Origin: Alphaproteobacteria bacterium
Lineage (GTDB): Bacteria > Pseudomonadota > Alphaproteobacteria > UBA9219
Assembly (NCBI GenBank): GCA_028690155.1
Contig: JAQVBU010000003.1
Location: 24,438 to 88,437 of the forward strand
Length of the DNA: 64,000 nt
Direction: 5' to 3'
Shown: piece after piece, positions 60,001-63,000 of the stretch
How the letters are laid out: each line of letters opens with the position of its first letter
How positions within the stretch are numbered: the stretch's first letter is position 1
Program-made: the position numbers

Positions 60001-63000
60001 GATACTGGGCCGCACGAAACCCGCAGAAACGGCACGTGAAATTGTCCTTTCTCAGGACGCTTTCCGTTTCTTTTTTGGACGGAACCCGAAGGTCCCCGCC
60101 CTTGGCGTCGGACGAAAGTCCGACGCCGAAGGTTAGAGGAAGTAAAGACAAGACGATTCCTTACTTAACTTAGAAGCCGCCAATCTCATCGAAATTCGCC
60201 GTTCCCGTCAGCGTATTACCGCCCGTCGCCTCGATCATGCCAACAAGCGACGGAGCCGCCAAGAAAGCCGCGCCCGCGCCAAGGCGGCCAAGCACGTTGC
60301 CCAGCGGAACCGACGACGGCTGATCCGCATGCTTCTTCGCCTGCGCGATGCCCGCCACGGTCAGAACCGTGCCGATGCCGTAAGAAATATAGCTGACGAT
60401 TGTAATAAACGGTTTAACGATACTCTCTTCGGCCTTCCCGACCGACGCATTAAGCTGCGCCAACGCATCCGCCGGAACCACGGCCGCAAAGGTCGCGGCA
60501 ACGACAAGGCCCGTCAACACATCATTGATAAGTTCTTTTTTCATAGTTGCGTTCATCACGTCTTCTCCTCTTAAGGGGTTACAATCACACTCCGAACAAA
60601 GCAAAACCACATGCCCCATCCGAACTCTTCAGGCCTCGCCGTGACCTTCAAAAGACTATATTTTTTTATTGTATCCTTTATCATAGTCCTCTGACAAGAT
60701 CCTCTCTTAATTCAACAAACCCGTATTCAACAAACCCGTTCCAAACGTGTTGTCCATAACGAACAAGAACTCGAAAATATTAATGGCCAAGACCCCGCCG
60801 ATAATAAAGGTCAGCCCTTGAGCTACGGTTGCGTTCGACCCGCCCTCCACAACCTTTTTCATGACGAGCCAGCCGCGCACAAAAGCGATTGCCCCGATAA
60901 TTTGAACGAAGGTTAACGCCGCGTTGACGGTCGAAAAAAAATGACGCGACGCCTCGTCGTCTCCGATAGTCGCCGAAAAATTGTCCCAAGACAGTTCGGT
61001 CGCGACGGTTGCGTCCCCAAAAACAGATACAAGCATCGTACTAAGGCTACTGCCCATCGCCATCAAGATAGCGCCGAAACCGAGATTGGTCAGAATGCTG
61101 TGAAGCGAATTCGTTCGAGGATCCGTTCCATAACGCGAGGCCTTGATAAGGCCGTGCACCACCATGAAAAGGCCGCACAGAAACGCTGTCAGCGACGCCA
61201 CGCCCAACAACGGACTTCTGACATTATTGACGAAATTTGTAATCAACCCATCAAGGCCTTCGGTCGGATGGGTCGCACCGGCGTCGCACTCAATGTGGCT
61301 CCCGAGGGCAAATTCGAGGGTATTCTCCAGCATGAAAACAACGCTGGGAAGCGACAACAGGGCCGCCGAGCCTCCCAAATAGCAAAGGGCCGTGCTGATC
61401 TTGTTGTTCTGGGGCGAGTCGGCATGAAGCTTGAGCTGATACACACCGCGCAACGCGGCGATCACGCCACAAACATAAGAAATCCACTCAAATACGTTCG
61501 TAAACTCTTTCGCGTTGTCGAAAGCGAGGCAAAGAACCTCGCCGAACGTTTCCACTTGCGCGGCGGCCGGACCCGCCGACCCCATCCAGCAAGCGACGAC
61601 GACAACTAAAAATAAAGGCGTCGCGGGAATTTTTAAAAAATTCTTTCCAAACAATGGAGCCTCTTCATTTTCAAGGACATTCATGATTCTTTCAATAATT
61701 CGAGCAGAGTACTGCGCACGAGATCATTTTGCCAACAAAGTTCTTAATGAGCCTTTAATTACATGAAAGGAGAGCCCTTTTTCTTTTTTGCTTAACCATA
61801 ATGTTTTTTTGACCTCTCCCTTCTTTCTCTATGATAAATTTATAAAATTATGCCTATTTTTCGTAAGTTTTCTCTCAACATTCCGGATTGCCCAGCCCGC
61901 ATCCGTCTCTGTGATCACCCCGGCTGCACCGAGCCGGGTCTCTACCGTGCCCCAAAAAGCCGTAATCAATTGAATGAATACTATTTTTTCTGCCTTAACC
62001 ATGTGCAAGAGTACAATAAAGCTTGGAACTTCTTCTCCGGCCTTTCGCCCGAAGAGGTCGAATCCTACACTCGAAACGCCACGGTATGGGAACGTCCGTC
62101 ATGGCCGTTGGGTCAATGGGGCGAGGCCGAACGCGCCCTGCGCCACAAAGCACTGCACGACATTTTTGGCCAAGCGCCTCAGGATTCGCCGCCGACAAAC
62201 GCGCCCTCCCTGTCCGGCACAGAGCGCGAGGCTCTGGCCGTTTTAGGCCTCGTTCCTCCCCTCGACTTCAGCGCCATCAAAGCCCGATACCGGGAACTCG
62301 TCAAAAAGCACCACCCTGACCTTCACGGCGGCACGCGTCAAAGCGAAGAGACCTTTAAACAGATCAACCTTGCCTTCGCAACGCTGCGCGATCTTTATGA
62401 AGAGGTTAAGGTCTAAAATCCAGACGTTCCATCTGGTGGGGATCGGCCATAAGAACGGTTGGCCCTTCATCGTCACTCACCCAGCCGCGGACCCGGAGGC
62501 GTTCACCCTTTAAAAGGAAAGGATCAAGGCCTCTTTTCTTGAGGGGCCTTAAAAAACGAGCGGCGAGGGACATCTTGAACCCAGGCGCTCCATCCAAAAA
62601 GAGATGAACTTTGTTTCGAACGCGCTTGACGCCGGTCACGGTCCCCACAACAAAGCCATAGCGTCCCCGAAGAACCGCCGCGTCCTTGGCCCTCGTATCC
62701 TGCTCGGCGGACCAAAGCCCCCGCCGCGCATCGCGCGCCCGCCTCTCGGCCTCCATCAAAGCGTCAAGATCGTCGCTTGCGCGGGCAGGACAGACATAGG
62801 CCTTTCCTTCACGAACCAAATCTTCGCCAACGGATGTACCCGAATTCGACTGAAAAACTTGAGCATCGATCCGTCCATACCGATCCCTTACAGCGTCCTT
62901 TAAAACAAGCGGCGCGCCGCTCACGGCCGCATCCAAAAAAGACTGCGCCTTTTCGTCGGCCGCGCAGACATTCGCCAAACGAACCTCACGCCCGTCCCTC

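Follow-up and report, generated by a model that had tools for sequence, protein, structure and literature searches.

The 64-kb stretch of DNA analyzed here (the window) belongs to a metagenome-assembled genome (MAG) of an uncultured "Alphaproteobacteria bacterium" and contains an exact TTAA-N7-TTAA box at positions 61744-61758, which is probably the activator site, bound by the response regulator CtrA, of a conserved promoter driving a minus-strand icmC-icmD-icmJ operon. The box, TTAATGAGCCTTTAA (TTAAAGGCTCATTAA read in gene orientation), lies together with a TTAACCAT half-site (61792-61799, plus strand) in a 165-bp intergenic region, 61685-61849, of 33% GC, bounded by the minus-strand ATG at 61684 and the plus-strand ATG of a J-domain gene at 61850. 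An earlier note on this DNA had described the two sequences, their positions, and the AT-rich divergent region exactly as we found them, and had placed the box in the promoter of the minus-strand operon, the side to which it is attached across relatives.

The real support for the box is its conservation in relatives, which takes in dozens of distantly related uncultured alphaproteobacteria. A scan with one genome per species yielded 80 loci encoding an IcmC-like protein (24-55% identity), from genomes labeled Rhodospirillaceae, Micavibrio, or "Bdellovibrionales," and boxes were counted over 320 nt upstream of the gene for this protein in 78 usable loci. An exact TTAA-N7-TTAA was present in 28 of the 78, compared to a mean of 1.16 loci and a maximum of 5 in 500 trials with shuffled upstream regions. 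When the spacing between the two TTAA half-sites was varied, N3 and N4 were each found in 4 loci, N5 and N6 in none, N7 in 28, N8 in 11, N9 in 1, N10 in 2, and N11 in 3. Within the closest 23 loci, 22 had the exact box; alignment of 23 promoters on the box gave 1.61 bits per position within it and 1.15 in the following 20 nt, with 0.15 bits per position, i.e., background level, in the 37 nt of upstream flank. The conserved block spans 35 nt, with the consensus AATTAAA.GcT..TTAA.aa.TTT.tTGGCAAAAT, between unconserved flanks, a pattern that we read as a classical phylogenetic footprint. Conservation in orthologous promoters was one of the checks that the earlier note had proposed, and its concern that the motif might be absent from related genomes is not borne out.

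The conserved block has the predicted layout of an activated promoter. The sequence TGGCAAAAT, invariant and 12 nt past the box, reads as an extended -10 element (TGn plus CAAAAT); the predicted element, TGgCAAAAT (61726-61734, minus strand), is nearly invariant in the 23 aligned promoters. No -35-like sequence was found 17 nt upstream of the CAAAAT hexamer, a place that falls inside the box. If the -10 element and the start site are the customary 6-7 nt apart, transcription is predicted to start near 61719, which puts the first T of the box (its 5' T) at about -39. Full CtrA motifs in Caulobacter begin, at their 5' end, "near the -35 region," and the activating site of ctrA P2 is at -39 (PMC4287350); the CtrA sites of Rhodobacter sphaeroides are also near -35 (PMC6180460). 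The comparison supports the view that the predicted geometry matches that of CtrA-activated promoters.

Likeness to the Caulobacter crescentus promoters, ctrA P2 among them, extends to the core motif, its overlap with the -35 place, and a 5' nucleotide at about -39 (PMC4287350), as well as to the absence of a good -35 hexamer and the use of an OmpR-family cell-cycle regulator, whose binding here is predicted. The target differs, however: the putative site precedes an operon for type IVB secretion, and no known class of CtrA target comprises such operons. The -10 element differs as well, being an extended TGn-CAAAAT here and of the GCTANAWC type in Caulobacter, and within the promoter family, both N7 interior and spacer show conservation. 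Pho boxes bound by PhoB, like class II sites of OmpR-family regulators, are direct repeats of 11-bp periodicity standing in place of a -35 hexamer; the Pho box differs from the box described here in half-site sequence and in regulator. The fla2 promoters of R. sphaeroides, where the CtrA site is near -35 and an A at -11 is conserved, are also alike, but those promoters were experimentally mapped and mutated and concern flagellar genes only (PMC6180460), whereas our reading is made from sequence alone. In R. sphaeroides, the fliQ promoter of Caulobacter is also read, in dependence on CtrA (PMC6180460).

Other elements were considered in the same region. A sigma-54 reading of TTGGCA was rejected, as no relative has a conserved GC dinucleotide 10 nt after the GG; so was an IHF site, as the conserved block has no WATCAA core, and a CcrM site (GANTC; GAATC at 61686-61690, by the ATG at 61684), which is unconserved in relatives. 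A conserved gcgtGATAgt element (L001-L015 among the collected loci, which are numbered L001 onward) lies about 12 nt downstream of the predicted icmC -10 element, at about 61690-61720 in the window, and could be a second -10 element, an operator, or a 5' untranslated region element.

The three genes downstream of this promoter encode, as judged from their similarity, components of the inner membrane and the coupling complex of a chromosomal Dot/Icm-type (type IVB) secretion system. The first (60707-61684, minus strand) encodes a 325-residue IcmC/DotE (TraQ)-like inner-membrane protein matching NCBIfam TraQ (E value of 1.5e-9) and Pfam DUF6750, TraQ of IncI1 plasmids being the conjugative counterpart of IcmC/DotE. 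We collected 70 homologues of this protein, some of which carry the JGI name IcmC; its translation may actually begin at a TTG some 36 nt past the ATG. A search with this protein aimed at extending the window along its 149-kb contig yielded just a 14-kb Logan contig, all of it within the window. The second gene (60170-60556, minus strand; the open frame extends to 60619) encodes a 128-residue IcmD/DotP-like small membrane protein, for which no family match was obtained. This protein and the N-terminal half of the IcmC-like protein are paralogues (39% over 64 residues; E value of 2e-13), as are IcmD/DotP and IcmC/DotE, and the position of its gene between icmC and icmJ is conserved. The last gene (59498-60151, minus strand) encodes an IcmJ/DotN-like protein (NCBIfam IcmJ_DotN_IVB; E value of 1.1e-19, 70.7 bits, curated cut-off of 100) and is syntenic in most loci. 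Because the scores fall below the NCBI equivalog cut-offs, the IcmC- and IcmJ-like proteins are distant members of their families. Two loci of more distant relatives, L022 and L028, have the Legionella-like gene order IcmE/DotG (E value of 4e-46), IcmG/DotF, icmC, icmD, icmJ. The earlier note had called the operon pilin-like, whereas its proteins match IcmC, IcmD, and IcmJ, and the best pilin match within it was sub-threshold (Pfam TrbC, for TrbC/VirB2; E value of 0.14, 12.9 bits against a cut-off of 27.9). No DotO, DotL, or DotC/D/H was found in the window, where the only other related components are a PilT/DotB/TraJ-like ATPase and an R64-type pil cluster.

A further box with the consensus TTAAGCnnCyGTTAA was found after the icmC-like stop codon and before icmD in 29 of 79 loci, compared to 1-6 loci for other spacings. 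Its first TTAA overlaps the icmC stop codon (L001-L042), and the window, at 60620-60706, keeps only this TTAA; where the second half-site was lost stands a near-consensus sigma-70-like promoter, TTGTCA-N18-TACAAT (60668-60697, minus strand).

We then asked which protein might bind the box. TTAA-N7-TTAA is a reported conserved target motif of CtrA (PMC6847485; PMC9791040), and ctrA itself is present at 48699-49418 on the plus strand, in agreement with the earlier note, which had put it 12 kb away: its product matches the NCBIfam CtrA equivalog over its full length at 422.7 bits (cut-off of 350), and its receiver domain matches that of Brucella CtrA (4qpj; E value of 3e-50). A second exact box, TTAAAAGATATTTAA in gene orientation (56490-56504, minus strand), stands 11 nt upstream of a -10 element, TATACT (56473-56478), and precedes a gene for a FliL-like flagellar basal-body-associated protein (55984-56466, minus strand; Pfam FliL at 25.3 bits with a cut-off of 24.6; NCBIfam FliL E value of 6e-6), which NCBI names FliL family protein. 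Genes of this class are controlled by CtrA in other alphaproteobacteria, and the Caulobacter promoters with a full CtrA motif include class II flagellar ones, fliQ for example. The fliL-like promoter has the layout of the icmC promoter and of CtrA-activated promoters in Caulobacter, and its -10 element is unambiguous; in L082, whose protein is 66% identical, the box, spacing, and -10 element are the same and the surrounding bases differ. Because CtrA is encoded here, the motif is known for CtrA, the predicted geometry matches, and a flagellar gene has the same site, CtrA is the most parsimonious binder, and we consider it quite likely to be the protein that acts at the box.

The remaining exact box of the window (TTAAGCCGATTTTAA when read along its gene; 51778-51792, minus strand) lies inside the 3' end of pyrC, 100 nt upstream of a T2SSE-family ATPase gene (50662-51678, minus strand). 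The encoded protein is a PilT/DotB/TraJ-like secretion or pilus ATPase (Pfam T2SSE; E value of 4e-28), with NCBIfam scores of 115.6 bits for the PilT family, 80 for TraJ, and 55 for DotB, all below the cut-offs. In all eight relatives collected by exact-protein look-up, TTAAGCCGATyTTAA was present without mismatch, 97-110 nt before the leading gene of a tandem ATPase pair; scanning metagenomes with the ATPase alignment gave nothing beyond generic PilT-like ATPases of about 30% identity. Coding constraint alone does not explain this box, because L166 and L169 have no pyrC-like sequence after it. A sigma-28 reading of its GCCGAT was rejected, as there is no conserved TAAA at the -35 distance. 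The N7 interiors differ between the four promoter families, which have only the TTAA cores in common, as expected for a regulator that reads the cores alone, such as CtrA.

The promoter of ctrA has related sites. Three TTAA-type half-sites of 10-bp periodicity, TTAA-N6-TTAC-N6-TTAA, are followed by an extended -10 element, TGcTAGAGT (48613-48651, plus strand); four loci (the window, L163, L165, and L018) share this conserved block between unconserved flanks, which suggests autoregulation of ctrA. The neighborhood of the gene is also conserved (48699-52756; L163 and L165), comprising pyrC, one or two T2SSE ATPase genes, rlmN, and ctrA, followed by mscS or the tcpQ/pil cluster; whereas pyrC is followed by two tandem ATPase genes in relatives, the window has the second type only (78% identical). 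In L018 (Kiruna_bin-02063, 4001-6218), a ctrA 95% identical to that of the window lies about 500 bp downstream of the icmC-like gene, and the icmC promoter there has a single half-site left, AAAGCTTTTTAA, plus a consensus TATAAT.

On the basis of these data, we propose that a phosphorylated CtrA dimer would bind the two TTAA half-sites, 11 bp apart, from 61758 to 61744, overlapping the would-be -35 place 12 bp upstream of the extended -10 element TGgCAAAAT (61734-61726). Since there is no -35 hexamer and the site stands in its place, CtrA would therefore recruit the housekeeping RNA polymerase, as it does in Caulobacter at ctrA P2 and at flagellar promoters of class II, or as PhoB does at pho boxes, and transcription of the icmC operon would start near 61719. 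With the same type of site before the fliL-like gene, the ATPase gene, and icmD of relatives, secretion parts, the ATPase, and a flagellar gene would be switched on together, presumably in the cell-cycle stage in which CtrA is active, probably a motile or attack stage. The regulatory element itself would be ordinary, an OmpR-family activator site replacing the -35 hexamer; the new part is the target.

Several observations weigh against this proposal. Our literature searches gave no precedent of CtrA directly controlling a type IV secretion system, and the plasmid type IV secretion system of Dinoroseobacter shibae, the candidate studied best, was explicitly placed outside the CtrA phosphorelay (PMC6473078). 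The search for FliL-like homologues returned one relative only, so that the flagellar positive control has an n of 1. More distant icmC-like relatives have N8 spacing or no box, although R. sphaeroides CtrA is known to tolerate non-canonical half-site spacing, which is relevant to these N8 variants (PMC6180460). Within the icmC promoter, the N7 interior (A.GcT) and the spacer to the -10 element (taagttta) are conserved beyond the needs of CtrA recognition; a second factor could account for this conservation, for the GATAgT hexamer, or for the N8 spacing, and contacts with sigma could alternatively account for the conserved interior and spacer. The two remaining points, a different promoter geometry in the closest relatives and a second regulator that reads the same core, amount to distinct explanations.

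The first of these accepts CtrA as the binder but places it upstream of a complete sigma-70 promoter, where it would act from about -50 in the manner of a class I activator or as a modulator. The closest relatives fit such an arrangement, with TTGGCA as the -35 element, 16 nt, GATAgT as the -10 element, and the box centered near -50. TTGGCA matches the -35 consensus in 5 of 6 positions and is nearly invariant in these relatives, most of which have the GATAgT-like hexamer, and full CtrA motifs of Caulobacter reach as far upstream as -49, at podJ P1 (PMC4287350). Against this, N8-type relatives show a shift of about 6 nt between the box and the second hexamer, and of only 1 nt between the upstream half-site and the first hexamer (CAnAAT). 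Furthermore, the TGG before CAAAAT makes a textbook extended -10 element, the second hexamer of the window itself, AGTACT, does not have the critical A at position 2, and the fliL-like promoter shows only the 11-nt geometry. We consider the upstream arrangement unlikely and favor the geometry in which the putative CtrA site replaces the -35 element.

The second is that the box is bound by another OmpR-family regulator, PmrA/BasR-like and dedicated to the secretion system, in parallel with Legionella and Coxiella. Because the PmrA/BasR box has the same core as the CtrA site, the motif alone does not name the protein: in enterobacteria, half-sites CTTAAG and nTTAAT 5 bp apart give the same TTAA-N7-TTAA (PMC3973317), and the box in the window reads CTTAAT-N5-TTTAAT on the plus strand. 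The two regulator families are close, since PmrA/BasR is the best NCBIfam match of the window's CtrA after CtrA itself and is among its best full-length PDB matches. In Legionella and Coxiella icm/dot promoters, the PmrA repeat is likewise at a fixed distance from the -10 element, and the Legionella consensus is cTTAATatT-N2-cTTAATatT. Consensus PmrA sites precede five Coxiella operons that hold most of the dot/icm genes (Zusman et al. 2007, as cited in PMC4117601). The PmrA-dependent icm/dot promoters of Legionella pneumophila and Coxiella burnetii resemble the promoters described here in having an OmpR-family regulator and a tandem TTAA repeat of 11-bp periodicity and in that several separate dot/icm operons carry the site (Zusman et al. 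2007, as cited in PMC4117601 and PMC6989116). They differ from the situation in the window, an alphaproteobacterium with CtrA, on several counts. Neither in the 64-kb window nor in the fetched loci was a PmrA-like gene seen, and CtrA is the only complete response regulator near these genes that has a DNA-binding domain. On the strand read as a PmrA site, any base (T, C, A, or G) may follow the 5' TTAA in orthologous promoters, and because of this variation the extended PmrA half-site YTTAAK is not conserved. The same type of box, with the same spacing, stands before the fliL-like gene, which is of a classical CtrA target class and not of PmrA's, and the promoter of ctrA itself has conserved TTAA-type sites. 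Altogether, a PmrA-like binder, although the main rival to CtrA, is unlikely. The box is not general among I-type systems, because the type IVB region of the Bosea plasmid pBSY19_1 (dotI-dotH-dotG-icmJ) contains no TTAA-N7-TTAA.

The earlier note had also placed the box before the divergent J-domain gene (61850-62416, plus strand; Pfam DnaJ, E value of 2.6e-11), and the box might regulate this gene or both genes, given that a single CtrA site can serve two divergent promoters in R. sphaeroides (PMC6180460) and that the TTAACCAT half-site lies on the J-domain side. However, the box is kept where the J-domain gene is not a neighbor (L008, L010-L012, L016, L019-L021, and L023), and the J-domain gene has its own conserved -10 element, tATGaTAAA, about 12 nt before the ATG in relatives (about 61830-61838 in the window) and more than 70 nt from the box. 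On the plus strand, no -10-like element follows the box, and the flank is unconserved. Because it is retained without the J-domain neighbor and that gene has its own conserved -10 element, the box belongs to the minus-strand secretion operon, of which the comparison supports it as a conserved promoter element; regulation of the J-domain gene is very improbable.

The half-site does not change this assignment. With two copies of TTAACCAT in the window and 0.96 expected, its frequency is not significant, and it was not conserved among 12 syntenic relatives, a few of which have loose TTAAC matches. The presence of a half-site in the promoter, as described in the earlier note, thus stands, and its relevance does not; it is probably nonfunctional and is treated here as a chance occurrence. 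The other copy (61995-62002) lies within the J-domain coding sequence and has no evident significance.

By frequency in the window, the full box stands out only slightly and the half-site not at all. The GC content is about 55%, not the ~58% of the earlier note, and three exact TTAA-N7-TTAA boxes were observed where dinucleotide shuffles gave 0.67 expected and three or more in 4 of 100 shuffles; the earlier note had expected a full box well under once, and one box per 64 kb is unremarkable alone because 0.67 are expected. All intergenic DNA of the window (8.7 kb) holds two boxes compared to 0.235 expected, and the three boxes sit 24-100 nt upstream of a gene start and in the gene's orientation, all three genes being on the minus strand. 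That the motif is a chance product of AT-rich intergenic DNA with no regulatory role, as the low GC content of the region and the window-wide expectation might suggest, is scarcely credible against a local-composition expectation of 0.02 boxes for 61685-61849, 28 of 78 orthologous promoters where about one is expected, the specificity for N7, and a conserved block between unconserved flanks. From these comparisons, we regard chance, like regulation of the J-domain gene, as effectively excluded. Moreover, the motif is not a general property of AT-rich promoters here, because the promoter of the pil (tcpQ-like) operon (about 46140-46230) is conserved with L163 and contains no TTAA-N7-TTAA.

In alphaproteobacteria, CtrA times flagella, pili, gene transfer agents, and division, and Dot/Icm-type systems are regarded as characteristic of the Legionellales and related groups, in which they are under PmrA control. 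We tentatively raise the possibility that an uncultured Micavibrio-related clade has a dispersed chromosomal Dot/Icm-type system with its icmC, icmD, and ATPase promoters wired to CtrA, so that secretion would be a developmental-stage output beside the flagellum. Since CtrA and PmrA read the same TTAA-N7-TTAA core, such wiring may have arisen when the regulator was swapped on an ancestral cis-element traveling with the secretion system; alternatively, it may represent striking convergence on the arrangement in Legionella and Coxiella. If true, the CtrA regulon would extend to a host- or prey-interaction machine, and there would be a testable handle on when uncultured, possibly predatory bacteria deploy it; a short, defined DNA fragment and a synthesizable regulator are of practical value for a binding test.

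Related genes were noted elsewhere. The genome paper of Micavibrio aeruginosavorus ARL-13 reported no type IV secretion system (PMC3189940), yet several Micavibrio-labeled MAGs (L042, L034, L044, and others) carry icmC-like and icmJ-like genes. On megaplasmids of alphaproteobacteria, IcmJ/DotN homologues go under the annotation "HNH endonuclease" (L167, Bosea sp. RAC05 pBSY19_1, and 72 other plasmid records), a label that probably hides type IVB secretion systems, because the Bosea gene follows dotI-dotH-dotG.

Other features of the window include the R64-type type IVb pilus cluster (38450-46132, minus strand), which encodes a TcpQ-domain protein, the PilN secretin, PilO, PilP, a PilQ-like ATPase, and a PilR-like platform protein. 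At 19439-19453, a box with one mismatch (TAAATAAACATTTAA when read along the gene), with CAAATT 13 nt on, lies 75 nt upstream of a minus-strand gene (18216-19364) whose product has a sub-threshold SpbR-family match; SpbR is the product of a CtrA-dependent cell-cycle gene in Caulobacter. At 56999-59352, coaBC is split into a CoaC-like gene of 370 codons and a CoaB-like gene of 414 codons (two DFP-domain stretches), both unusually long, and the remaining genes of the window are housekeeping genes.

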